A stretch of 64,000 bases of DNA from contig JAZNEW010000061.1 in the NCBI GenBank assembly GCA_045588775.1, positions 31,884 through 95,883 of the forward strand. The letters are read 5' to 3'. Source of the stretch: Candidatus Egerieisoma sp. GTDB lineage: Bacteria; Bacteroidota; Bacteroidia; Bacteroidales; UBA932. The notes beneath the pieces were generated by a model. The model ran no database searches and was not told where the DNA came from. It saw only the letters and a list, made by a program, of their open reading frames with translations. Shown here in pieces: positions 23,142 to 41,673 of this stretch (position 1 is its first letter; each line of letters opens with the position of its first letter). A program made the translations under genes and the position numbers.

Positions 23142-24293
23142 ATGAAAAAGAGCATTCTTATAGTAATGGCTGCGTTGCTGGTATTTTCTTGTGCCCCAAA
23201 AGATAACGCAGTGATAGATGTGGAGGTTCAAGGTGGCGGAGAGAAAGAGATAATCCTCTCAAAACTGCATGTGAACCATATAAATGTTGTGGATACTTTG
23301 ACTTTGAATGCAAAGGGTTCTGCAAAGTATAGTGTGTCTGTGGGAGAACAGACTCCTGATTTCTTCTATTTGTCGTACAACAAAAAGAGATTGGCATCAC
23401 TGATTCTAAAAGGTGGGGACCGTGTTAAGGTTTCTGTGGATACATTGGGTAACAACCTTTCTGTTGAGGGATCCCAAGAATCTGTAAGACTTGCCGAAGT
23501 TGAGGCTAAAGTTCATAAGTTCACTTCGCAGTTCGACTCTCTCTCTTACGAGTTGGTCTCTGCGGTAGAGGCAAATGATACCAAGAAATCAGACGAATTG
23601 CAATATGCATTGGGACGCCACTTCATACAATACAAGAGAGCGGCAGTTGCAGATATAATGCAGAATCCATATTCATTTGCAAATGTTACACTTCTGTATC
23701 AGAAGCTGAGTGAAAGCCTGCCTCTTTTTGGAGCAGTTACAGATGTTGCATATTTCAAGCGCGTTTCGGATTCACTGCAGACCATATATCCAAATTCGGT
23801 ATATGTGAGATCTCTGAAAGAAGAGGTTGCCAGACTGGAAAATGTTATGGCATTGGACAATAAAATCAAAACAGCACAGGAACAGGCATATCCGGAACTT
23901 TCGTTGCCTGATACACAAGCCAAAACCCAAAAGCTGTCGTCATTGCTCGGCAAACCTTTTGTATTGGTATTCTGGACAAGCTCAGTTGCACAGCAGAAGA
24001 TGTTCAATCACGACCTTAAAGAGCTTTATGCAAAATACAATCCTAAAGGTCTTCAGGTATATCAGGTGAGCGCAGATGTTGATAAAGCTGCTTGGGCAAC
24101 AATCGTTAAGGATCAGCAGTTGCCTTGGATTAATGTTTGCGACGGATTTGGTGTGCAATCAACAGCCTTGCATACATATGGCGTAACAACATTGCCTGCA
24201 ATGTTCATTTTCGACAAAGAGGGCAATATCGTGGCCAAAAACATATTTGATAAAGTTGCTCTCGACAGAGAGTTGGGCAAGCTCTCTTACTAA
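23142..24293 (+). CDS. TlpA/thioredoxin-fold lipoprotein lacking the CXXC motif
   Basis: Lipobox 'LLVFSC'. C-terminal Trx-like region 'KPFVLVFWTSSVAQQ' stands where 'FWASWCGPC' is expected. Confidence 0.7.
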   Translation: MKKSILIVMAALLVFSCAPKDNAVIDVEVQGGGEKEIILSKLHVNHINVVDTLTLNAKGSAKYSVSVGEQTPDFFYLSYNKKRLASLILKGGDRVKVSVDTLGNNLSVEGSQESVRLAEVEAKVHKFTSQFDSLSYELVSAVEANDTKKSDELQYALGRHFIQYKRAAVADIMQNPYSFANVTLLYQKLSESLPLFGAVTDVAYFKRVSDSLQTIYPNSVYVRSLKEEVARLENVMALDNKIKTAQEQAYPELSLPDTQAKTQKLSSLLGKPFVLVFWTSSVAQQKMFNHDLKELYAKYNPKGLQVYQVSADVDKAAWATIVKDQQLPWINVCDGFGVQSTALHTYGVTTLPAMFIFDKEGNIVAKNIFDKVALDRELGKLSY

Positions 24294-25025: not shown

Positions 25026-26264
25026 TTAATTATTTTCTGTTATCTCTTTTATCTCTACAATTGAGCCATTTTTCAGCTCCCTTGTTATTGCGCTGTATGG
25101 CCCGGTAACAATAAGTGTGCTGTCCGACAATCCTTCAAGTACAACTATATTTTTCATATCCTGAATGCCTGTCCTGACAATAGCAGGCTCTACTTTTGAA
25201 GTGGCTTTATCGTATATGAAAATATGCTCTGTGATACAGTCTGTCGGCAGGCTGTCGGTCAATCCGCTTCGTGTTGTAATGGCCTGCAATGGTACAACAA
25301 GGGCATTGTGGCATATTTCTGTCTCTATTCCAACCGATGCCGACATCCCCGGTCTGAATGGAAGAGGATTCTTTTGGAGAAGGTCATTATAAGATTCCGG
25401 GCAAATGACCACATGTACTTCAAAGCTTGTAACCTGGTCGAGACTTGCTGCAGCTCCACTGTTTTTGGCCGAATTGGCAATCTCGGTAACAACGCCCCTG
25501 AACTTTCTGTTGGGATAGGCATCAACCTCCACATAGGCGGTATCTGCAATACTCAACTTGATTATATCATTCTCGTTTACATCAACAAGAACCTCCATGG
25601 CATTAAAATCGGCAATCCTCATCATCTCTGTTCCGGCCATCTGGCTGGTGCCCACCACTCTTTCTCCCTTTTCAACCTCCAGCTTTGAGACAATTCCGTT
25701 GATTGGGGCATAAATTGCAGTTTTTTGAAGACTCTCCCTGGCCTCTTTAAGTGCCGCTTCTGCACTTTTTATATTGTATCTGGCATAGTTGAGCTGTTCC
25801 ACAGCTATTTCGTATTTCGAAAGTGAGTTCTCATAATCCGCCTTAGAAATGGCCTTTTGCTCATAAAGCATCTTGTCTCTTTTGAAAGCCTGTTCTGTTT
25901 GTGCCAGCTGGCTCTTCTGTTGGGAATATTGTGCCTTTACCGAATTTAATGAGGCTTGAGCCCGCTCTACGGCAGATATGTAGAGATCCTGTCGGATTTT
26001 AATCAAAAGATCACCCTCTTTTACATTATCACCCTCTTTAACATTCAGCTCTATAATTTCTCCTGAAACATCGGGACTTATTTTTATCTCGGTAACAGGC
26101 CTGATCTTGCCATTTGCAGGGATGCTCTCTATTATAGTGGTACGCTGGGGATATCCCACACTAACCGGAATACCACCGGAACCTCTGTTCTTGGAGATAA
26201 CAATCAGCAGAATCATTACTGCAAAGGCTGCAATCAATATATGTTTTTTCCGGATCTTTTTCAT
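25026..26264 (-). CDS. HlyD/MacA-type periplasmic adaptor (membrane fusion protein)
   Basis: N-terminal TM, lipoyl-like 'VSGEIIELNVKEGDNVKEGDLL', long coiled-coil, 'IYAPINGIVS', beta-barrel region. Confidence 0.85.
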   Translation of the reverse strand: MKKIRKKHILIAAFAVMILLIVISKNRGSGGIPVSVGYPQRTTIIESIPANGKIRPVTEIKISPDVSGEIIELNVKEGDNVKEGDLLIKIRQDLYISAVERAQASLNSVKAQYSQQKSQLAQTEQAFKRDKMLYEQKAISKADYENSLSKYEIAVEQLNYARYNIKSAEAALKEARESLQKTAIYAPINGIVSKLEVEKGERVVGTSQMAGTEMMRIADFNAMEVLVDVNENDIIKLSIADTAYVEVDAYPNRKFRGVVTEIANSAKNSGAAASLDQVTSFEVHVVICPESYNDLLQKNPLPFRPGMSASVGIETEICHNALVVPLQAITTRSGLTDSLPTDCITEHIFIYDKATSKVEPAIVRTGIQDMKNIVVLEGLSDSTLIVTGPYSAITRELKNGSIVEIKEITENN

Positions 26265-26270
26265 AAACTT

Positions 26271-27596
26271 CTATAATTTTATGGGTACTCCTCTGTAGAA
26301 GTCGAGTATTTTCAGCTGGAACAGATATTGGAATCCGGCCTGATAATATTCTGATTGTGCTTTTGACAAATTTGTTTTTGCCACAATATAATCGGTACCG
26401 TTTACAATTCCCACATCAAATTTTTGTTCCACATAATTGAATGATTCCTGACTTGCCTGCATATTCTTTTCTGCAGCATTATATTTTTCATAAGCTCCTA
26501 CAGCATTATTGTAGGCGGTAGAAATATCTTTATACAATTGCTGACAGGATTTTTTCAATTCAATTTCATTATGCTCCACATTAAGTCTGGCATTGCGGAT
26601 ATTTGTATTTGTACGCCATCCGTTAAATATAGGAATATTCAGACTGAACCCGATTGATGGGTTGCGGTTTTCATTGAATTGGGTCAGAAAGGCCTGCTCC
26701 CTGCTGTCGCTGTAATATGTTCCATACCCTGCAGAAAACGATAATGAGGGGTAGGCATTCCCCTTCTGTATTTTATAGTCGTACCTGCTTTTTTCAAGTT
26801 GCAGCTCAGCCGATTTAATCTGAGGCAGAGAGCTGGCTGCCGCATATATTTCATCAATATTTTTGCCCGACAAATCATCCATTATAAAATTACCCGAAGG
26901 ATACTCCACCGTAAAATCTGAATCATTTGGAAGATCCAGCAATTGGGCAAGAACCAGAGTATTGCTTTTGACACTGTTCCCGGCCTCAATAAGTTGTACC
27001 CTCTCATTGGCAAGTTGTGCCTCTATCTCCAATAATGTGCTGTATGCCTGACTGCCCGCATCAACCAGCTTTTTTGTGCGCATAACCTGCTCCTTTACGC
27101 TGTTGTAGCTCTTTTCCAGGGATTTTTCAATCTCAATGTACAAGAGTACCTGCAGATATGCTTTGGTTATTGCAACAGATATTTCATCTTTCAGCTTTTC
27201 TGAATCCTGTATTGAAATCTCAAGCTGAAGTTTGCTGCTTTTGAGGGCATTTGTCTTTGACAGGCCCTGTATTATCGGCATCGAAGCACTGATGCTCGAA
27301 CTGGTGCTCTGTGTAAGTTGGTTTGTTATCTGGAGATCGTTGATATTAACAGATTTTCCCCAGTTCATATTGTGATTTATTCCGGCATTTACCGTTGGAA
27401 TGAAATCGAGTTTGGATTGCAGGACATTGTTCTTGGCCTGCTCAATGGAGAGAGCCTGCTGCTTTATCTGCAAATTGTTTTTATGGGCATACTCTATACA
27501 CCGTTCAAGACTCCATATATCCTGTCCATATAAATGTGAAGAGGAGAGGATTGTGTATGATAGAATAGTGATTATGAGGGGTTTGATATATTTCAT
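26271..27596 (-). CDS. TolC-family outer membrane efflux protein
   Basis: Signal peptide, 'LERCIEYAHKNNLQIKQ' opening, two repeat halves, 441 aa. Confidence 0.85.
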   Translation of the reverse strand: MKYIKPLIITILSYTILSSSHLYGQDIWSLERCIEYAHKNNLQIKQQALSIEQAKNNVLQSKLDFIPTVNAGINHNMNWGKSVNINDLQITNQLTQSTSSSISASMPIIQGLSKTNALKSSKLQLEISIQDSEKLKDEISVAITKAYLQVLLYIEIEKSLEKSYNSVKEQVMRTKKLVDAGSQAYSTLLEIEAQLANERVQLIEAGNSVKSNTLVLAQLLDLPNDSDFTVEYPSGNFIMDDLSGKNIDEIYAAASSLPQIKSAELQLEKSRYDYKIQKGNAYPSLSFSAGYGTYYSDSREQAFLTQFNENRNPSIGFSLNIPIFNGWRTNTNIRNARLNVEHNEIELKKSCQQLYKDISTAYNNAVGAYEKYNAAEKNMQASQESFNYVEQKFDVGIVNGTDYIVAKTNLSKAQSEYYQAGFQYLFQLKILDFYRGVPIKL

Positions 27597-27649
27597 AATA
27601 TGTCTCCGATACTTTTCAGCAAAGGGATTTGCCCTAAATGCAAAGATAC

Positions 27650-27701
27650 AAAAAAGAAGTGCATATCAAGATTGGCATTGGTAAAACTTGTTATGCACTT
27701 C
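27650..27701 (-). terminator. Intrinsic terminator/attenuator after the peptide genes
   Basis: On the minus strand, the GAAGTGCATAACAAG / CTTGATATGCACTTC stem (15 bp, 1 mismatch, 16-nt loop) is followed by TTTTTTG. Confidence 0.55.
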
Positions 27702-27715
27702 ACGATAAAAAAGTG

Positions 27716-27913
27716 TTAGAACTTATAGTAATAGCCATTTATTGCCTGGGTGGCAATACACTTCTGACCTTTGTTCACAAACAGATAGACCAGTCTTGCC
27801 AAAGTACCGGCACACTGGGCAACCATTTCAACAAAGGCTGCCAGCTCCTCGCTGCGTCCTCCCGAGATGAGCGAAGATTCAAATTCTGAAATTTCTACAA
27901 TCCTCTTTTTCAT
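27716..27913 (-). CDS. Double-glycine-leader peptide 1 (bacteriocin/microcin-like precursor)
   Basis: Leader 'MKKRIVEISEFESSLISGG' followed by a 46-aa core with 2 Cys that ends in GYYYKF. The ATG at 27913 overlaps the upstream TGA (ATGA). The track start at 27925 adds MEKY. Confidence 0.7.
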   Translation of the reverse strand: MKKRIVEISEFESSLISGGRSEELAAFVEMVAQCAGTLARLVYLFVNKGQKCIATQAINGYYYKF

Positions 27914-28098
27914 ATACTTTTCCATCCTTTTTCAAAACCTCTTGTTATATCCTCTTTGTATTCAGATATGAAATCCACAATAAATTTCATGTAGCGGACA
28001 ATTCTGAAGAGTTCCCGCCATGCCGTTCCGCCTCTAATCTGCAGCTCACTCTCCGAAACAGATAACAGGCTGCATTTCTTCTTCATATTTTTTTCCAT
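27910..28098 (-). CDS. Double-glycine-leader peptide 2 (bacteriocin/pheromone-like precursor)
   Basis: Leader 'MEKNMKKKCSLLSVSESELQIRGG' (LSxxELxxIxGG-like) followed by a 38-aa Cys-free amphipathic core. Confidence 0.7.
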   Translation of the reverse strand: MEKNMKKKCSLLSVSESELQIRGGTAWRELFRIVRYMKFIVDFISEYKEDITRGFEKGWKSI

Positions 28099-28143
28099 AA
28101 TATAAATTTTGTGCCTACCGGAATGGTGCGTAGGCTGCCACCG

Positions 28144-28161
28144 TTTGAGTGCGCACTCAAA
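28144..28161 (-). promoter_or_regulatory. Perfect 18-bp palindrome abutting the ABC exporter stop codon
   Basis: TTTGAGTGCGCACTCAAA lies immediately 3' of the TAA at 28162-28164. A further GCCTAC/GTAGGC stem sits at 28113-28135. Confidence 0.4.
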
Positions 28162-30252
28162 TTATTGAATTATCATGATATTGTCGGCTATTGTTTTAAA
28201 TAAACTGTTGTGTGATATTATGATAATGGTTTTGCCATTTTTCTTCAGCTCTTTAATGATATCTGCCATGAGCAATTCCGACTCTTTGTCCATGGAGGAG
28301 GTTGATTCGTCAAAAATCATGATTTCAGGATTTTTGTACAAAAGTCTGGCTATTGCCAATTTTTGCGTTTCGCCTCCCGAAAAGAGCATGCCCTCCTCTC
28401 CAATATGGGTAAGAAGACCAGCCGGCAGCCCTGCTATTTTATCTTCAAGCCCTGTAGAGCGACATATCTGTATAACCCTTTCCATATCGGGATTCTCCTC
28501 TCCACAAGTGATATTCTCCAATATCGAGGCATTGAACAGGTAACATTTTTGTGGAACAATTGATACATATCTCCTCCATTGCCCTATTGGAATTGTTGAA
28601 ATATCGGTATCTCCGCAAAATATGGCGCCGTTATCAATCCGGTAATCGCGCATAATCAGGGAGACCAACGTGCTTTTGCCGCAACCTGCCGCTCCGTTGA
28701 GCAGAGTGATTTCTCCTTTTGGAATATTCAGATCGAGCTCCTTGAACAGCTGGTTGCATCCGGGATATGAAAATGTCAATTTGTTTATCCGTATGTTTCC
28801 GGGTCTATATTTCTCCCTGTCGGAACCCTTATGCAGGTATGTATCTTCCTCCTCAAGCTCCAAAATTTCATAAAGCCTTTCTGCAGAGACTGCCGCTTGG
28901 GTAATGATGGGATTCAGACCGGTTAAATTGGAGAGAGGTGTGCAGAACAGGGAGCAGAGCGTATAAAATGAGACCAGCTCTCCAATTGTTATGCTATTGT
29001 TGAAAACTGCAAATCCGCCCGAAACTATAATTGCCGATATCATGCCTTTTGATACCGCTTCGGCAGAACATCCGAGTATAATGCCGGCTTTTGCCGCCTT
29101 GTATAGATTTTTGGCAAGTTTGCTGTAACTTCCTTTTATTTTCTGTATCGACAAATTTTCGGCAGAATAGTGCCTGCTGCAAGCAATTCCCTCAATGCCG
29201 TGCAGCAGATCGGTCTCAAATCTGGCCCCCGATTCAGCCAAATGCCGGTTATGTTTTTTATTGATTGGCCCCGACAGGACAAACAGCCCGATATACACCG
29301 GAATAAATGCCAATGACAACAGGGCCAGGTTGGTGTTGTAGTGAAACATTACAGGAACCGCCACTGCAAGAGTGAAGAGACTCGTTGCAATGGATACAAT
29401 TCCATCCGACAAAAATAGTCTTATATTGAAGGCATCTCCTATACGGGAGCTGATGTCTCCCGGCTGGTAGCGGTTAAAAAACTCCAGAGGCAGAACCGCG
29501 AGTTTGTTTACATATCGGGTTATAAGATGGTTGTCTATCTTTATTCCATGAGTTGTAATGCAGATGTTTTTCAGATAGTTTATACATAAGCCCATAATGG
29601 CCAATATGATTATTGTTGCAGAGATGGCTGTAAGGGTGGAGATATCTCCATTCGGTATGGCATTGTCGATAATCTGTTGCAGAAATATGGAGCTGCTTAT
29701 CCCAATCATAGTTGTAATGAGGGTTCCGGCAATGGCAAAAAGGATCTCCCATTTATACAGGTATGCAAGTTTGAGCAATTTCAGATAAGTGTTTCCCTTC
29801 TCATCTCTCCTTTTAAAGTGGCCCGACGGAGTAAAGGTAATGATGTACCCGGTCCAGATATTGCAGAATTCAGGCCTGCCCAGTTTTATAAACTCCCCTT
29901 TGGCAGGATCCATTACCATATAACTCTCCTTGTTGATGCTGTAAAGAACCATGAAATGCAGCATGCCATCTTCTGTTTTGGTATGTATTATTGCCGGCAG
30001 AGGAGAATCTGCCAGAGAAGAGGAATCCCTGTCGGGCGATTTGTAGGCTTTGCAACTGAATCCCAGCTTATTGCCACCCTCGATCAATCCCTTTATTGTT
30101 ATACCCTCTTTTGTGCATCCGCAGAGTAATCTGGCCTTTGCAAGAGATATCCTCACTCCATGCCATTGTGCCACAGAGCACAGGCATGCAGCTCCGCAAT
30201 CATGGAGACTTTGCTGTTCTATTTTTAAATCTTTTTTCATTTGGGCAGACAT
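28162..30252 (-). CDS. Peptidase C39 domain-containing ABC exporter (bacteriocin-processing type)
   Basis: N-terminal 'QSLHDCGAACL' (catalytic Cys), 'LHFMVLY' (His), 'MDPAKG' (Asp). Six-TM core. Walker A 'GAAGCGKST', signature 'FSGGETQ', Walker B 'IMIFDEST'. Confidence 0.9.
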   Translation of the reverse strand: MSAQMKKDLKIEQQSLHDCGAACLCSVAQWHGVRISLAKARLLCGCTKEGITIKGLIEGGNKLGFSCKAYKSPDRDSSSLADSPLPAIIHTKTEDGMLHFMVLYSINKESYMVMDPAKGEFIKLGRPEFCNIWTGYIITFTPSGHFKRRDEKGNTYLKLLKLAYLYKWEILFAIAGTLITTMIGISSSIFLQQIIDNAIPNGDISTLTAISATIIILAIMGLCINYLKNICITTHGIKIDNHLITRYVNKLAVLPLEFFNRYQPGDISSRIGDAFNIRLFLSDGIVSIATSLFTLAVAVPVMFHYNTNLALLSLAFIPVYIGLFVLSGPINKKHNRHLAESGARFETDLLHGIEGIACSRHYSAENLSIQKIKGSYSKLAKNLYKAAKAGIILGCSAEAVSKGMISAIIVSGGFAVFNNSITIGELVSFYTLCSLFCTPLSNLTGLNPIITQAAVSAERLYEILELEEEDTYLHKGSDREKYRPGNIRINKLTFSYPGCNQLFKELDLNIPKGEITLLNGAAGCGKSTLVSLIMRDYRIDNGAIFCGDTDISTIPIGQWRRYVSIVPQKCYLFNASILENITCGEENPDMERVIQICRSTGLEDKIAGLPAGLLTHIGEEGMLFSGGETQKLAIARLLYKNPEIMIFDESTSSMDKESELLMADIIKELKKNGKTIIIISHNSLFKTIADNIMIIQ

Positions 30253-30284
30253 TTGTTGTCTGCAAAAATGGCCGGCAGTTCCCT

Positions 30285-30328
30285 AAAAAAGAAACAGAAG
30301 CGTAAAATCTTGGAAATTTACGCTTCTG
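30285..30328 (-). terminator. Intrinsic terminator of cvpA
   Basis: Perfect 12-bp stem CAGAAGCGTAAA (30295-30306) / TTTACGCTTCTG (30317-30328), followed on the minus strand by TTTCTTTTTT. Confidence 0.65.
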
Positions 30329-30356
30329 GAAATATTCTGGAAATATTCTGGAAATA
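30324..30356. repeat. Three perfect tandem copies of the 11-bp unit TTCTGGAAATA
   Basis: Read directly at 30324-30334, 30335-30345 and 30346-30356. A degenerate copy TCTTGGAAATT lies at 30308-30318. Confidence 0.9.
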
Positions 30357-30379
30357 AAAGGGCCTTTAAAAAAATGGAA

Positions 30380-30874
30380 TTATGGAATCAGCGATTGCAG
30401 ATGGGGATATATTCTCTCCGACAGCATTGTGAGCTGGGGATAGAAGAGCGAATTTGCCGATAAAGAATCAGGAAGAATATTCCATGATCTGTCGAGATAA
30501 TTGAGTATAAATACAATCAGACTCAATATAATCAGCGACTTTGCAGCTGCAAATAGAATTCCCAGTAATCTGTTGAGCCATCCTAAAAGTGAAAATGTTA
30601 CTATTTTCTCGATGGCTTTCCCGATAAAAGTACATATAAGTATCATAATAAGCAGAATTATTATGAAAGATATGATGTAAATTACTGTTTCCCCGGCAGG
30701 GAACAATCCTTTTATATAGTTTGCAACCACCGGTGAAAACTTGAATGCACACCATGTTCCCAGTATCAGGGACAGGATACTTACAAGTTGTGATATGAAG
30801 CCTTTGAATGCTCCATATATTGCACTCGCAACTACAATCACAAGGATTATAAAATCGACAACTCCCAAATCCAT
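30380..30874 (-). CDS. cvpA: CvpA family membrane protein
   Basis: 'DFIILVIVVASAIYGAFKGFISQLVSILSLILG', four TM segments, 164 aa. Confidence 0.8.
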   Translation of the reverse strand: MDLGVVDFIILVIVVASAIYGAFKGFISQLVSILSLILGTWCAFKFSPVVANYIKGLFPAGETVIYIISFIIILLIMILICTFIGKAIEKIVTFSLLGWLNRLLGILFAAAKSLIILSLIVFILNYLDRSWNILPDSLSANSLFYPQLTMLSERIYPHLQSLIP

Positions 30875-30888
30875 TTCCTGTAGCTCTG

Positions 30889-32055
30889 TTATTTGTTCTG
30901 TAAAGTATCTGACTCAGGAACAAGAATACCCATCGACCAGACGGCGCGGACATTCAAATTATTGTCCAGAATTACGATATCTGCATCTTTGTCCTTTTCG
31001 AGGGAGCCTTTTTTGTCGTATATGCCCATGATTTTCGCAGGGGTTTCTGTTGCCATGCGGATAGCGTCTCCAAGAGGAATGCCCGCTTTTTGGTTCATGG
31101 TCCTGACAAGTACATCCATGGTTGCTATACTTCCTGCAAGTGATGAGTGGTCTGCATATTTGCAAACGCCATCTTCTATAATCACAGGTGAGCCCTCTTC
31201 TGGTTTTATATTGCTTCCTGCATACTTCAGTGCGTCGGTAACAAGACATGTGCGCTCTGCACCTTTGAGCTTGTATACCATTTTAAGTATGGTGTGAGGA
31301 AGGTGTCTTCCGTCGGCAATAACCTCCACAGTCATGTCGTCCATCAGGTAAACACTCTCAATGGTGCCTTCGTATTTGTACTCCTGACGTTTGTGGAAAC
31401 CTGGCATGGAGTTGTAGAAGTTTGCAGTGTGGGTAAATCCTGCCTCATACGCCGCCTTTATATCTTCAAATTCAGCCTCTGTATGTGTTATTGTAGCCAG
31501 AATGCCTTTTGAAACCAACATTTGTGCAAGTGCATGGGCTCCCGGTATCTCAGGACTGATATCCCATCTTTTTATGCAGTTTGTGCTGTTCAGTATGGCT
31601 GTATACTCCTCTTTGTCGGGATTTTTTACTTTATGCACAGGCCCCGACATTTTGGGATTGAGGTATGGTCCGGCAAGGTGCAGACCCATAACTTGCGAAT
31701 TCTCTTCGTTCATGAGTTTTTCGCAAATTTCTATGGCTTTGTGGATCGATTCTGTTGGAGATGTGCCAAGTGTGGGGAATATGCTTGTGGCTCCATATCT
31801 CAAATGTGTTGCAACAATTGTACGGAAGGCCTCTTCTGTGCAATCCCTGAAGTCAAAACCGCCTCCGCCGTATACATTCATGGCTATGAAACCGGGTACA
31901 ATGTTCATTCCCTTTGCATCAATGGTATCGGCACCTATAATGGCAAGCTCATTATCTGTAACCGCCAGGATTTTTCCATTGTTGATAAGGACAGATCCGC
32001 CTTTGATCCAGCCTTGTGGGGTAAGAATATTACCGTTTGTAATTTGTGTCAGCAT
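30889..32055 (-). CDS. NagA-like amidohydrolase paralog with degenerate metal site
   Basis: 388 aa, collinear with the neighbouring nagA. It has 'MNVYGGGG' (no HxH), 'HLAGPY' (Glu to Ala) and 'THTANFYNSM' (His to Asn), but keeps 'TDAL'. Confidence 0.8.
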   Translation of the reverse strand: MLTQITNGNILTPQGWIKGGSVLINNGKILAVTDNELAIIGADTIDAKGMNIVPGFIAMNVYGGGGFDFRDCTEEAFRTIVATHLRYGATSIFPTLGTSPTESIHKAIEICEKLMNEENSQVMGLHLAGPYLNPKMSGPVHKVKNPDKEEYTAILNSTNCIKRWDISPEIPGAHALAQMLVSKGILATITHTEAEFEDIKAAYEAGFTHTANFYNSMPGFHKRQEYKYEGTIESVYLMDDMTVEVIADGRHLPHTILKMVYKLKGAERTCLVTDALKYAGSNIKPEEGSPVIIEDGVCKYADHSSLAGSIATMDVLVRTMNQKAGIPLGDAIRMATETPAKIMGIYDKKGSLEKDKDADIVILDNNLNVRAVWSMGILVPESDTLQNK

Positions 32056-32068
32056 CGCACTACTGATA

Positions 32069-33235
32069 TTAGAATAATTTGTTGGTTCCCTCTACTAATT
32101 TACCCATCGCCCAAACGGCACGGATATCAAGATTCTTGTCCAGAACAAGGATATCGGCATCTTTGCCGCGTTGCAGAGATCCTTTGCGGTCGTATATACC
32201 CATGATTTTTGCAGGGGTCTCTGAGGCCATGCGTATGGTGTCTTCCAATGGAACTTCTGCCTTTTGTACCATGGTCTTGATGAGTCTGTCCATTGTGGCA
32301 ACACTGCCTGCAAGTGCAGAACGGTCTGCAAGTTTGCAGACGCCATCCTCAATTATGACTCTCGGGTCGAAGGCTGTCTGGCTGTCGCTGGCTGCGCACG
32401 CAAGGGCATCTGTAATCAGACATGTTCTCTCAACACCTTTTACTTTATATACAAGTCTGAGGATTGTAGGAGGAACATGGATACCGTCGGCAACAACTTC
32501 AACAGTCATGTCATCAATAAGGTAGATACTCTCAACTGTGCCTTCATATTTGTATTCGCGACGTTTGTGGAATCCTGGCATTGCATTGTAGAAGTGTGTG
32601 GCATGAGTGTAGCCTGCCTCGTATGCAGTCATGATATCTTCATATTCTGCCTGAGTGTGGCCTACAGATGCCAGAACGCCTTTTGAGGTGATGTATTTTC
32701 CAAACTGCATAGCTCCAGGCAATTCAGGAGCCGCATCCCATCTCTTTATGCAGTTTGTCTCTTCCAGTAGCGGAATATATTCGTTCGGGTCGGGATTTTT
32801 GATGTTTTCAGGAAGCTGGCCACCTGCCATCTTCATATTGAAATAGTGTCCTTCGAGGTGCAGACCCAATACAGGGCTGTCTTTCTCTGCCATAAGTTTT
32901 TCTGTTGTGGCGGCTGCCTCACGTATCATCGGTATGGTAGATGACGACAATGTTGGGAATATACTTGTTGTTCCATGTTGCATGTGGGCCTTTACAGCAG
33001 TTCTGAAGGCATCCTCTGTTCCCTCCATAAAATCTCTGCCACCGCCGCCGTGTGCATGTATCTCTATACCGCCAGGCACTATATACATGCCTTTGGCATC
33101 AATCAGGTTGGCGCCTACAACGGCCATATCGCAATTTGTTACCTCAAGGATTTTGTTGTCCCTCATTATTATGGAGCCATCTTTGAGCCATCCCTGAGGG
33201 GTAAGAATTTTTCCGTTTATAATCTGTGTTAGCAT
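32069..33235 (-). CDS. nagA: N-acetylglucosamine-6-phosphate deacetylase
   Basis: 'EIHAHGGGG', 'LHLEGHY', 'VGHTQA', 'THATHFYNAMPG', 'ITDAL'. The full ligand set is present. Confidence 0.9.
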   Translation of the reverse strand: MLTQIINGKILTPQGWLKDGSIIMRDNKILEVTNCDMAVVGANLIDAKGMYIVPGGIEIHAHGGGGRDFMEGTEDAFRTAVKAHMQHGTTSIFPTLSSSTIPMIREAAATTEKLMAEKDSPVLGLHLEGHYFNMKMAGGQLPENIKNPDPNEYIPLLEETNCIKRWDAAPELPGAMQFGKYITSKGVLASVGHTQAEYEDIMTAYEAGYTHATHFYNAMPGFHKRREYKYEGTVESIYLIDDMTVEVVADGIHVPPTILRLVYKVKGVERTCLITDALACAASDSQTAFDPRVIIEDGVCKLADRSALAGSVATMDRLIKTMVQKAEVPLEDTIRMASETPAKIMGIYDRKGSLQRGKDADILVLDKNLDIRAVWAMGKLVEGTNKLF

Positions 33236-39075: not shown

Positions 39076-41673
39076 TTAGTCAAGGTAGAATCTTTTTTTT
39101 GTTTCTTCCGACAGTTCCCTGTTGTGAAAGCGGTGTCTTGTTTCATTGATGAGTTCCTGAAGAGGCTTGTATCTGTAAAGGTGTATCTTGCCGTCTGCAC
39201 AAGCACCTGCAAGCAGGCTTTTGTCGGGACTAAGGGTCAGGTATGCCATGGTGCCATATCTGGACGTGAATGCCCATATCTCTTCCCCGGTTTCAGAATC
39301 GATTACCTTTATGCTTCCATTCCATGCGGTGGAGAGAATCTGTTTGCCGTCATCGGTAAATCTCGCAAAGTGTATAGTTGTATTATCCTTGTCTATGTGC
39401 GCTTTGACAGTGGTTCCTCTCTCCATATCCCATATTGCAATGCTGCCGTCTCCGGTGCCGCTGCTGAGTATCATCGTACGGTTATGAAGGTGGAGGATAT
39501 ATGGACTACTTATGATGTCTGTGTTGATAGTGATTCTCTTCCTGATTGTGAACTCTTCTGCATCTATGATGATTGCCTGCTGGCTGGTTATGGCGATGAT
39601 CTCTTTATGTTTCGGATCATAAGTTACTTTATAAACAATATCAGATCCTCCTGATATGATTTTGACCACACTGGCTTCACTGATGCTCCATATTCTTGCC
39701 GAATGGTCCATGGATGCAGAGATCAGATATTTTCCATCAGGACTGAATTCTATGTGATGGACATAGTGACTATGACCTGTAAATGTCAATACTGCTTCAG
39801 AATTGTCGATATCCCAGAGCCTTATGGTGCCGTCCTCGGATGCAGATGCAAATTGCTTGCTGTCGGGGCTTACGGCTATGTGCCTTACTTTTCCAGTGTG
39901 TCCTGTAAAGCTTCGGAGTGTGGTGCGGCTTTCTATATCCCACAACTTTATGTTATTGCCACTTGATGCCAGAAGTTCTTTATTGCTGCAGAAGGCCAGA
40001 CATGTTATGGTTTTGAAGTCGTTTTCATCGTCCAAAATGAGCTCATCGATAATTGTCTTGTGATTCCATAATTTGATTTTATGGTCCCAGGAAGCAGATA
40101 TCATGAAACGTCCGTCATTGCTGAATTGTGCGGATGATACGGCAAGGGAATGTCCCATATATGTATGGATGAGATCACCGGTTGTGGCATCCCATATCTT
40201 AACGGTATTATCCCAGGATGATGAGATTATGAGTCTTCCATCGGGACTGTATTCTGCATGTGATACTACATTTTCATGGCCTGTGAGGTTATGCAATACT
40301 TTCCCGGTCTCAGTGTCCCATATCTTTATGGTTTTGTCGTCGCTGGCTGACAGGACTGTTTTTTCATCGTTGCTGAATTTTGCTGAATTGACTGGACCGG
40401 AATGGACATGGAATGTCTTGATGCATATTTCATCAACGATGTTCCAGAGCTTGACCGTACCGTCTTCGGATGCTGAAAGAATATGTTTTCCACACTTGCT
40501 GAATTCTACTGAACTTACCCATTTTTCATGACCGCTCAATTCTCTGTACAGATTGCCTGTTTCAACTTCCCAGATGCAGATAGGACCCTCTTCGGTGCCG
40601 GATGCAATGAAGTTGCCGCAAGGGGAGTAAACTGTGCTGGAGACTTCGCAGCAGTGTTCCATGGAGTGTATTATCTCGCCTGATTTTATGTCTGTTATCT
40701 TGGTTGTTCCATCTGATGATGCAGATAGTATGTGATAACCATCATGACTGAAGCATGCGGAGTATACCGGGCCTGAATGGATTGTTAAAGTCTTGAGCTT
40801 TACGCCACTGTCAAGGTCCCAAATGATGACAGTGCCGTCTTGCGATGCTGAAACCAGATGTTTCCCGTCGGGGCTTGATGAAATTGAGAAGACTTCTTTT
40901 GTATGGGCTTTCAGAATGGCGGTTCGGAAAGAGTGTGCTTTCCTCAGAATAGCTTCCGCTTCTGGAATATATGGGCGGTCTTCGGGATCGGAGATATCTG
41001 CCGGTAGTGCCCTCAATGCAAGTAAGCATGCTAAATATGAATCTCCCTTTTGTATAGCATCTTCTGCTTTCTCTGTAAGAAAACGGCTTTCCAGACGCTG
41101 GAGACGTCGTTTTTCGTTAATCAGACGCTCTCTTTCCTCCTGCTTTTCCCTTTCATATCGTTGCCATAACTCATCAAATGAGACTCCGAGCATATATGCT
41201 ATTAATTTGATTGATGCGATCTCCTGACCGTTCTGCATATTGATCCCGAGTTGTTCGTTATCTGTTTTGCGAAGATTTATAAGCGCTTGAGGAAAACATT
41301 CTCTGTCAGGGTCGTCGGAATAAGGGATTCCGTCGATGATAAGCGGAATGATGCTGTCTGCTCTGCCAGACTGGATAAATGTCATGACTTCCTTGTTCAC
41401 CCAAGGTGATTTTGCGGAATTCGGAGAACAAAGGACAATAAGGTATTTGGAGTCGCTCAATGCCTGACTGATAGCATCAGACAGATTGCCGCCGGAGAGT
41501 TCCGCCTCGTCAAGGAACAGCGGCCGCAGTTCCTTGGGCAGTTCCGGTCTGGTCTCGCATATGTTAACAGGAAGTCGATAGTGTTCCAATTGATGATGTA
41601 GCCATCCGGCAATCTTTTCATCCTTGCGCTGATAACTGATGAATGCAAAATATTTGTAAACCTTTGTCTCCAT
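39076..41673 (-). CDS. TIR domain - coiled coil - 14x WD40 repeat protein
   Basis: N-terminal '[12 protein letters not shown]...[20 protein letters not shown]' (TIR). Linker '[23 protein letters not shown]'. Then 14 units of the type 'GH...V....FS.DG..L.SAS.D.T.K.WD'. Confidence 0.9.

Follow-up and report, generated by a model that had tools for sequence, protein, structure and literature searches.

The window analysed here is a 64,000-nucleotide stretch of contig JAZNEW010000061.1 from Candidatus Egerieisoma sp., a member of the Bacteroidales. Its minus strand encodes two small peptide precursors, peptide 1 and peptide 2, next to an ABC (ATP-binding cassette) transporter with a built-in peptidase (PCAT), which is composed of peptidase-C39, ABC-transmembrane, and ABC-ATPase domains (Table 1). 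The genes are arranged in the order PCAT – peptide 2 – peptide 1, and the 3' end of the peptide 2 gene overlaps the start of the peptide 1 gene by 16 nucleotides. The two peptides resemble the halves of a two-peptide bacteriocin, and the genes that surround them could provide a route across both membranes of the producing cell.

Peptide pair and export genes

Peptide 1 was originally predicted at positions 27716..27913, with no strand given. This segment is the minus-strand open reading frame (ORF) read from its second ATG, which yields 65 residues. The upstream ATG is at least as likely to be the start, because homologs keep the N-terminus 'ME..', and the leader is then 23 residues long (19 from the second ATG) and ends in a double glycine (GG). 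A cut after the GG would release the predicted core of 46 residues, and translation of the ORF confirms the cysteines at core positions 15 and 33 and the C-terminus GYYYKF. The gene is genuine, as it is found again in related contigs and is under purifying selection, with a ratio of nonsynonymous to synonymous substitutions (dN/dS) relative to an ortholog of about 81% identity of 0.19 overall and 0.12 for the core only. The dN/dS of peptide 2 is 0.14.

A homolog of peptide 2 is located directly upstream of every peptide 1 homolog with upstream sequence, and the two genes overlap or abut. The pairing was seen in the window and in L001-5, L009, L006-8, L013, L014-17, L018-19, L020-23, and L024-26. 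The order PCAT – peptide 2 – peptide 1 is likewise kept in every member with upstream sequence.

The PCAT is the sole inner-membrane transporter of the cluster. Its match to the bacteriocin_ABC model TIGR01193 has an E-value of 2e-117 and scores below the curated cutoff of the model. The motifs HDCGAACL, HFMVLY, and DPAKG, the Cys, His, and Asp of which we take to be the catalytic residues, align with the motifs of the PCAT from the locus of the bacteroidetocin Bd-A. Genes of a TolC-like outer-membrane efflux protein and of a periplasmic adaptor of the HlyD/membrane fusion protein (MFP) family follow that of peptide 1, and the TolC-like gene is syntenic in all contigs reaching past peptide 1. 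The C39-peptidase transporter and the adjoining TolC-like and HlyD-like genes bear out the earlier view of peptide 1 as a double-glycine-leader peptide positioned for processing and export.

The relatives of the peptides are few. A word-indexed search returned near-identical copies only, whereas a HMMER profile search of 1.84 billion representatives gave eight proteins at E<1e-3. A walk from the homologs of peptide 2 led to a peptide 1 homolog with 44% identity, and a metagenome scan added three further, more distant lineages. Scans of a genome collection (GTDB representatives) with the peptide profile and with the PCAT identified no relatives; the species is apparently not among the representatives. 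Comparisons of the two peptides with Pfam, NCBIfam, and sequence profiles of the PDB gave chance or coiled-coil matches only. In these searches, the peptide family is thus unannotated, with no Pfam or NCBIfam model, and is found in one uncultured Bacteroidales clade only.

In the longer contigs, cvpA is located upstream of the PCAT gene, and the genes of the TolC-like protein, MFP, TsaB, a thioredoxin-like protein, a HIT protein, and GreA follow downstream. The 90% identity cluster of GreA contains metagenome-assembled genomes labelled 'Bacteroidales bacterium' and Candidatus Egerieousia excrementavium. Because the gene order and the flanks are syntenic in the relatives, the locus is vertically inherited within one uncultured Bacteroidales clade. 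The identity between the window and contig L014 is 95% for GreA, 77% for TsaB, 75% for the isoleucyl-tRNA synthetase IleRS, 68% for the MFP, 65% for the TolC-like protein, 51% for the PCAT, 51% for peptide 1, and 42% for peptide 2. The exporter PCAT and the peptides are the fastest-evolving part of the region.

The peptide 1 gene is directly followed by a hairpin with a U-run that resembles an intrinsic terminator or attenuator at the end of the PCAT – peptide 2 – peptide 1 unit. Of the seven lineages folded, six have a hairpin with a T-run at this site (there is none in L013), and its stem sequences differ in L014 and L018. The octamer TATCTTTG is found between the hairpin and the start of the TolC-like gene in the window and in L001, L009, L014, L018, and L006. 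It matches TAnnTTTG, the -7 promoter consensus of Bacteroidetes. Since the hairpin and then the octamer precede the TolC-like gene, the likely layout is [PCAT – peptide 2 – peptide 1] – terminator, promoter – [TolC – MFP – (tsaB)], which suggests separate transcripts for the peptide genes and the TolC/MFP genes.

Another conserved non-coding element, GGTGGCAGCCTACGCACCATTCCGGTAGGC, is located between the genes of the PCAT and peptide 2. The core of the element is invariant over five distinct lineages despite peptide 2 identities of 40-48%, and its GCCTAC/GTAGGC stem contains one compensatory pair (C-G to U-A). The element is present in a single copy in the window, with 0 expected by chance. 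The element may act as a 5' stem-loop or as an operator, and the segments GGTG and CACC make a pseudoknot possible. Among the lineages compared, which exclude L024-L026, it is absent where the gap between the PCAT and peptide 2 genes is only 12-35 nt (L020, L022). Neither the element nor the terminator region has a match in Rfam. In L014 (5358..5778), the spacer from the PCAT gene to the element is about 420 nt long, A/G-rich, and internally repetitive, with units such as GTGAGCGGAAGAAT and AAAGAATGTGAGTGAATG, whereas it is about 20 nt long in the window.

Table 1. Coordinates of the peptide genes, export genes, non-coding elements, and flanking features in the window
Feature	Position	Strand	Description
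WD40-repeat protein	39076..41673	(-)	865 aa; Pfam WD40 7e-103; at least 8 repeats
NagA-like amidohydrolases, tandem paralogs	30889..32055 and 32069..33235	(-)	388 aa each; between cvpA and ileS
cvpA (colicin V production protein family)	30380..30874	(-)	PF02674 2e-31; directly upstream of PCAT in every lineage
Terminator-like hairpin between cvpA and PCAT	within 30253..30379		AGAAGCGTAAA...TTTACGCTTCT and T-run
PCAT	28162..30252	(-)	696 aa; first gene of the unit; Pfam Peptidase_C39 5e-30, ABC_membrane 1e-36, ABC_tran 3e-24
Conserved non-coding element	28113..28142 (region 28107..28160)	(-)	GGTGGCAGCCTACGCACCATTCCGGTAGGC; roughly 15 nt upstream of the ATG of peptide 2; preceded by palindrome TTTGAGTGCGCACTCAAA
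Peptide 2 precursor	27910..28098	(-)	62 aa; leader MEKNMKKKCSLLSVSESELQIRGG (24 aa, ends in GG); core TAWRELFRIVRYMKFIVDFISEYKEDITRGFEKGWKSI (38 aa)
Peptide 1 precursor	27716..27925	(-)	69 aa; leader MEKYMKKRIVEISEFESSLISGG (27857..27925); core RSEELAAFVEMVAQCAGTLARLVYLFVNKGQKCIATQAINGYYYKF (27719..27856); stop 27716..27718
GYYYKF tail of peptide 1, beta-signal-like	27719..27736	(-)	coil in AlphaFold2 model
Putative terminator or attenuator	27649..27701	(-)	hairpin GAAGUGCAUA...UAUGCACUUC and U-run; RNA fold z = -2.2
Promoter-like octamer	27641..27648	(-)	TATCTTTG; upstream of the TolC-like gene
TolC-like outer-membrane efflux protein	26271..27596	(-)	441 aa; signal peptide; Pfam OEP 4e-58; TIGR01844 type_I_sec_TolC 7e-44
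HlyD/MFP periplasmic adaptor	25026..26264	(-)	412 aa; N-terminal membrane anchor; HlyD_D23 7e-21, HlyD_3; RND_mfp 3e-47; type_I_hlyD 8.5e-21
Thioredoxin-fold lipoprotein	23142..24293	(+)	383 aa; DUF4369 and AhpC-TSA/thioredoxin fold; WTSSVAQQ where CxxC is expected; syntenic in all related contigs

Helical cores and a possible two-peptide toxin

The core of peptide 1 was expected to have a hydrophobic helical centre, and the AlphaFold2 model calculated from a 10-sequence alignment agrees with this. Precursor residues 26-62 are predicted to form one helix, the last seven residues (NGYYYKF) are modelled as coil, and the mean pLDDT is 74.6. The helical hydrophobic moment of peptide 1 is 0.45-0.52. 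Peptide 2 is strongly amphipathic, with a helical hydrophobic moment of about 0.6, and is predicted with moderate confidence (pLDDT 67.9) to form helices from residues 25-46 and 48-61. Each of the two cores, of 46 and 38 residues, has a net charge of +2, and their helical moments span 0.45-0.64.

Conservation of peptide 1 was tabulated over 14 lineages, and motifs were tested on 15 members, 14 of which are full-length. The conservation information is concentrated in core residues 1-26, and the best-kept positions are A6, V9, A13, C15, G17, K/R21, and Y24, of which G17 is invariant in the 14-sequence table. The conservation has the 100-degree periodicity of a helix, and the conserved positions therefore share one helix face. 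The information content drops past core residue 26, which argues that selection acts on the helix of peptide 1 and not on its tail. An [A/S/G]xxxGxx[small] motif is present in all 15 members, at core position 13 in 12 of them and in a shifted register in the remaining three. In peptide 2, the invariant residues are a tryptophan at core position 3, Y47, G54xxxG58, and W59, and the last residue is hydrophobic in all lineages seen.

Six of the seven aligned lineages have a cysteine at position 9 of the peptide 2 leader (K-K-C-S-L-L), and a leader cysteine also occurs in one of the three lineages from the JGI metagenome. A conserved cysteine within a double-glycine leader seems unusual to us.

The strict pairing, the overlapping genes, the shared GG leaders, and the helix-packing motifs in both peptides support a two-peptide unit. 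Judged by analogy, the chances are about even that peptides 1 and 2 together make up an unmodified two-peptide toxin of an uncultured Bacteroidales, a class IIb-like bacteriocin or microcin-like agent with GG leaders and microcin-style export. Cores of 38 and 46 residues are typical of class IIb bacteriocins. As in lactococcin G and plantaricins EF, JK, and S, one unit contains adjacent genes for two small peptides that differ from each other (PMC2850506). The double-glycine leaders of 23 and 24 residues fall within the class IIb range of 15-30 residues, a dedicated peptidase-ABC transporter gene is adjacent and is predicted to provide the cleavage, the cores are cationic, amphipathic, and predicted to be helical, and modification enzymes are lacking. 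GxxxG-type motifs, which are reported in all characterised two-peptide bacteriocins (PMC2850506), are present in both peptides. Unlike class IIb bacteriocins, the pair comes from a Gram-negative producer with TolC-like and MFP genes, has no adjacent immunity gene, and is encoded in a core-chromosomal, vertically inherited locus. It has no homology to known members, as indicated by the lack of Pfam and NCBIfam matches, and is known here from sequence alone.

The export genes resemble those of class II microcins such as MccV, which is exported by CvaA, CvaB, and TolC, that is, by an MFP, a PCAT, and a TolC channel (PMC12219008). The features in common are a Gram-negative producer, a double-glycine signal, genes of the PCAT, MFP, and TolC type, which may assemble in the same manner, small proteins that are presumably unmodified, and a cvpA-family gene next door. 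In class II microcins, a single peptide is encoded beside an immunity gene, whereas the locus described here encodes two obligatorily paired peptides and no recognisable immunity gene. The cores of about 4-5 kDa are at or below the microcin range of about 5-10 kDa, there is no sequence similarity, and the producers belong to different phyla. Class II microcin leaders are about 15-18 residues long. The leaders of peptides 1 and 2 have 23-24 residues, and the signals of bacteroidetocins have 15 (PMC12219008).

We propose that the PCAT, peptide 2, and peptide 1 genes are transcribed as one unit, within which the 16-nt overlap would couple the translation of the two peptides and make it roughly equimolar. 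The C39 domain of the PCAT may cut both leaders after their GG motifs, and the PCAT, the HlyD-like adaptor, and the TolC-like channel would expel the cores of 46 and 38 residues across both membranes, as in class II microcins. Outside the cell, by analogy with class IIb bacteriocins, the two amphipathic helices would act jointly on related bacteria and disturb a membrane or membrane protein of the target. The helices may pack through the small-residue face of peptide 1 (A6-V9-A13-G17-A20-Y24) and the GxxxG-W segment of peptide 2. The variable tail of peptide 1 would then be a lineage-specific interfacial anchor or specificity module rather than a conserved pharmacophore.

It is also conceivable, though unlikely, that each of the two peptides is a one-peptide bacteriocin in its own right and uses the same exporter as the other, or that peptide 2 is an exported helper or chaperone-like partner, with no heterodimer formed in either case. 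Peptide 2 is far more polar than peptide 1 (GRAVY -0.35 versus +0.25), loci in which several bacteriocins share one PCAT are common, and the contact between the two peptides is something that we infer. Against such independence, the peptides are strictly paired, in the same order and from overlapping or abutting genes, in all lineages with upstream sequence, and the helix-packing motifs are conserved in both.

Several observations weigh against the two-peptide toxin. Its activity is argued from analogy for the whole family, and a peptide of 4-5 kDa would have to cross the outer membrane of the target. The high charge of peptide 2 may keep it out of a bilayer. No immunity gene was seen in the window, in which there is no small transmembrane (TM) ORF between cvpA and tsaB besides the peptides. 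The hairpin and promoter-like motif between the peptides and the TolC/MFP genes mean that co-regulation with the outer-membrane parts is not guaranteed. The family is small, and the conservation statistics are based on about 15 sequences. Finally, vertical inheritance among housekeeping genes, with no mobile element, is not the usual situation of bacteriocins, and it would suit a role in physiology or signalling just as well.

Such a role would be fulfilled if the pair were non-toxic and served as a secreted signal, similar to a pheromone or morphogen, or as another self-directed extracellular factor exported by the PCAT. The locus belongs to the core genome and is syntenic across species whose IleRS is only 75% identical, it has neither an immunity gene nor a mobile-element context, and the peptides diverge together with the PCAT in the manner of pherotypes. 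PCAT-exported non-toxic peptides are known in Gram-positive bacteria, and a PCAT drives cell differentiation in Nostoc (PMC7018657, PMC10986499). Nevertheless, no sensor kinase, response regulator, or Rgg-type receptor adjoins the locus, and the only histidine kinase of the window is about 22 kb away. Amphipathic GxxxG cores of 38-46 residues are larger and more bacteriocin-like than typical pheromones, and obligatory peptide pairs are atypical of signalling systems. We know of no precedent for such signalling in Bacteroidota, and we regard a signalling role as improbable.

Within the two-peptide interpretation, the family joins an obligatory pair of the class IIb-like kind to a tripartite exporter of the Gram-negative type, and it is vertically inherited. 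Class II peptides with GG leaders and a PCAT are known, and thousands of them are predicted in Bacteroidota (PMC12648112). Should the two peptides prove to be toxic, the two-peptide design, which in the literature found so far is restricted to Gram-positive bacteria, would be extended to Bacteroidota, with export through a complete PCAT/MFP/TolC route. An unannotated peptide family would also join the small set of peptides that target Bacteroidales and are of interest for microbiome editing. The core-genome inheritance raises the question of whether the system is a weapon or a conserved physiological or signalling system.

C-terminal tail and cysteines of peptide 1

The tail GYYYKF is an alternating aromatic triad ending in phenylalanine. 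It fits the pattern G-x-x-aromatic-x-aromatic of the beta-signal by which outer-membrane proteins (OMPs) are recognised by BamA of the machinery for beta-barrel assembly (BAM). In the window, the pattern G..[FYW].[FYW]$ occurs in one of 758 stop-to-stop segments of at least 40 residues, which is the peptide 1 ORF itself. The pattern also arises in 0.13% of 200,000 composition-preserving shuffles of the core, a value that overstates the significance, since the pattern was picked after the sequence had been seen.

The original prediction proposed a beta-signal mimic on an exported toxin. In this reading, exported peptide 1 would kill through its tail, which would pair with strand beta-1 of BamA at the lateral gate and block OMP assembly, as darobactin and lectin-like bacteriocins do. 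The short aromatic-rich C-terminal segment is indeed shared with the known BamA beta-signal mimics, which include darobactin and the lectin-like bacteriocins or L-type pyocins (PMC13463100; bioRxiv 10.64898/2026.09.25.754295). In the AlphaFold2 model, the tail is a free coil after the helix and could adopt an extended conformation. However, the strict pattern is present in only three of the 15 family members, namely the window, L009, and P0001, which are at least 96% identical, and a loose form of the pattern in four of the 15. The ortholog with 81% identity ends in GYYYKM, and the more distant lineages, all of which fail the strict pattern, end in GYFQKQ, GYYPKF, GMFPKY, GYYPK, GSQIVWK, GVYSWR, GDLSLWD, and GDLMIHK. 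Three cores of 39 residues from the JGI metagenome end in GRPVV, NPTAL, and TPSAM and have no Gly-aromatic tail. The terminal residues over the family are thus F, M, Q, F, Y, K, K, R, D, K, V, L, or M, and several tails contain a proline at position -3. A subfamily retains G-[YM]-[YF]-x-K-x, and some of the distant tails keep a hydrophobic or aromatic dyad with a charged cap (IVWK, YSWR, LSLWD). The C-terminus is, in essence, not conserved among the homologs, and the comparison does not support the proposed mimicry.

Variability of a tail is not in itself decisive, because secreted lectin-like bacteriocins are documented to use hypervariable C-terminal peptides as beta-signal mimics (bioRxiv 10.64898/2026.09.25.754295), and these peptides are placed onto strand beta-1 of BamA (PMC13463100; bioRxiv 10.64898/2026.09.25.754295). 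The variability therefore lowers the likelihood of mimicry in the lineage of the window but is not a clean refutation. Unlike the lectin-like bacteriocins, the lectin domains of which bind loop 6 of BamA, peptide 1 has no targeting domain that could bind BamA loops; much of the family has no such tail or a non-aromatic one, and the conservation of peptide 1 resides in the helix. The one available structure of a Bacteroidota BAM has an extracellular canopy over BamA and a BamP linker in the barrel lumen (PMC12611786), which may hinder entry from the outside. Apart from the TolC-like protein, the window encodes no beta-barrel OMP that would allow a comparison with native beta-signals, and the cognate BamA is not encoded within the window. 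We consider killing by beta-signal mimicry highly improbable. A combined scheme has a still fainter prospect: a class IIb-like two-peptide system, the first in a Gram-negative phylum and part of the core genome of an uncultured Bacteroidales clade, would engage a membrane or receptor through its helix pair and would have acquired GYYYKF in the lineage of the window as a BamA beta-signal mimic.

The analogy to bacteroidetocins, on which the BamA proposal also drew, is not transferable. Bacteroidetocins (class IIf; Bd-A to Bd-D) are likewise produced by Bacteroidota from GG-leader precursors encoded next to a PCAT (PMC6671954, PMC8546649). Their mature size of 42-48 residues includes that of the 46-residue core, and they too have no evident immunity gene. 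However, they have leaders of 15-16 residues (19-23 in peptide 1) and usually four cysteines, whereas peptide 1 has two in the window and mostly one elsewhere. They are rich in Trp, Gly, and Tyr, do not look helical, and are single peptides without TolC or MFP. Killing of Bacteroidales through surface loops of BamA (Asp of eL3) characterises the bacteroidetocins. Bd-A binds to such loops, and this has been contrasted with darobactin, a mimic of the substrate signal that acts at the lateral gate (PMC8546649).

Peptide 1 was aligned by BLASTP to the sequences of Bd-A and Bd-B from Supplementary Fig. 2 of PMC6671954; the match to Bd-A (E = 1.6) was limited to the leader, and there was no alignment to Bd-B. 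At bacteroidetocin loci, which are located on mobile elements, the genes of a 5-TM protein and a thiol oxidoreductase accompany those of the peptide and a PCAT (PMC6671954). The Bd-A contig that we inspected encodes a TM protein, the peptide, an AhpC-TSA/thioredoxin protein, and a PCAT, of which the PCAT alone is common to the locus of the window, with 28% identity between the two transporters. CvpA of the window was considered as a counterpart of the 5-TM protein, which is required to make bacteroidetocins, and rejected, as the latter has no Colicin_V domain and no similarity to CvpA. The lack of sequence similarity, the different composition of the loci, and the divergent PCATs exclude peptide 1 from the bacteroidetocins.

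The two cysteines of peptide 1 had been suggested to form a disulfide. Of the 13 lineages in which position 33 was compared, only four have this cysteine, and most lineages have one cysteine only. On the modelled continuous helix, Cys15 and Cys33 are separated by 18 residues, or five turns, and would be located on the same face at a distance of about 27 Å by helix geometry. The operon does not encode a thiol oxidoreductase. The thioredoxin-fold lipoprotein encoded nearby was rejected as a disulfide catalyst: it has no CxxC motif, is probably redox-inactive, and is a conserved neighbour on the opposite strand. Because of the rarity of Cys33, the spacing in the model, and the lack of an oxidoreductase in the operon and of CxxC in the nearby lipoprotein, an intramolecular disulfide is neither conserved nor favoured, and the helical model disfavours it; a non-helical state might still allow it. 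The beta-signal-like tail and the cysteine pair belong to a single lineage rather than to the family as a whole, and the outcome for the original claim is mainly negative.

Flanking genes

The genes of ileS, two NagA-like amidohydrolases, and cvpA flank the peptide locus on one side, and those of tsaB, the thioredoxin-fold lipoprotein, a HIT protein, and greA on the other. These are housekeeping genes, and no modification enzymes are encoded near the peptides. CvpA is named for colicin V production. A functional link of cvpA to production of the peptides is unproven, and the gene may be a mere syntenic neighbour. It is set off from the PCAT gene by its own terminator-like hairpin with a T-run, after which there is a short direct repeat, TTCCAGAATATTTCCAGAATATTTCCAGAA.

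Between cvpA and the PCAT gene, L014 (2954..3112), L018 (3386..3670), and L022 (935..1078) contain small ORFs that each have one hydrophobic, apparently transmembrane segment; MNKEKKRFSAKLNKSVEWMIINLSPGFTAVYCTALLLVAGIIITTLFILKAS is an example. These single-TM ORFs are candidates for immunity or accessory proteins and have no counterpart in the window. The tandem pair of NagA-like paralogs is present in L001, L009, and L018 and absent in L014 and L020, where ileS abuts cvpA. Elsewhere in the window, the WD40-repeat protein is an unusually large bacterial beta-propeller protein.

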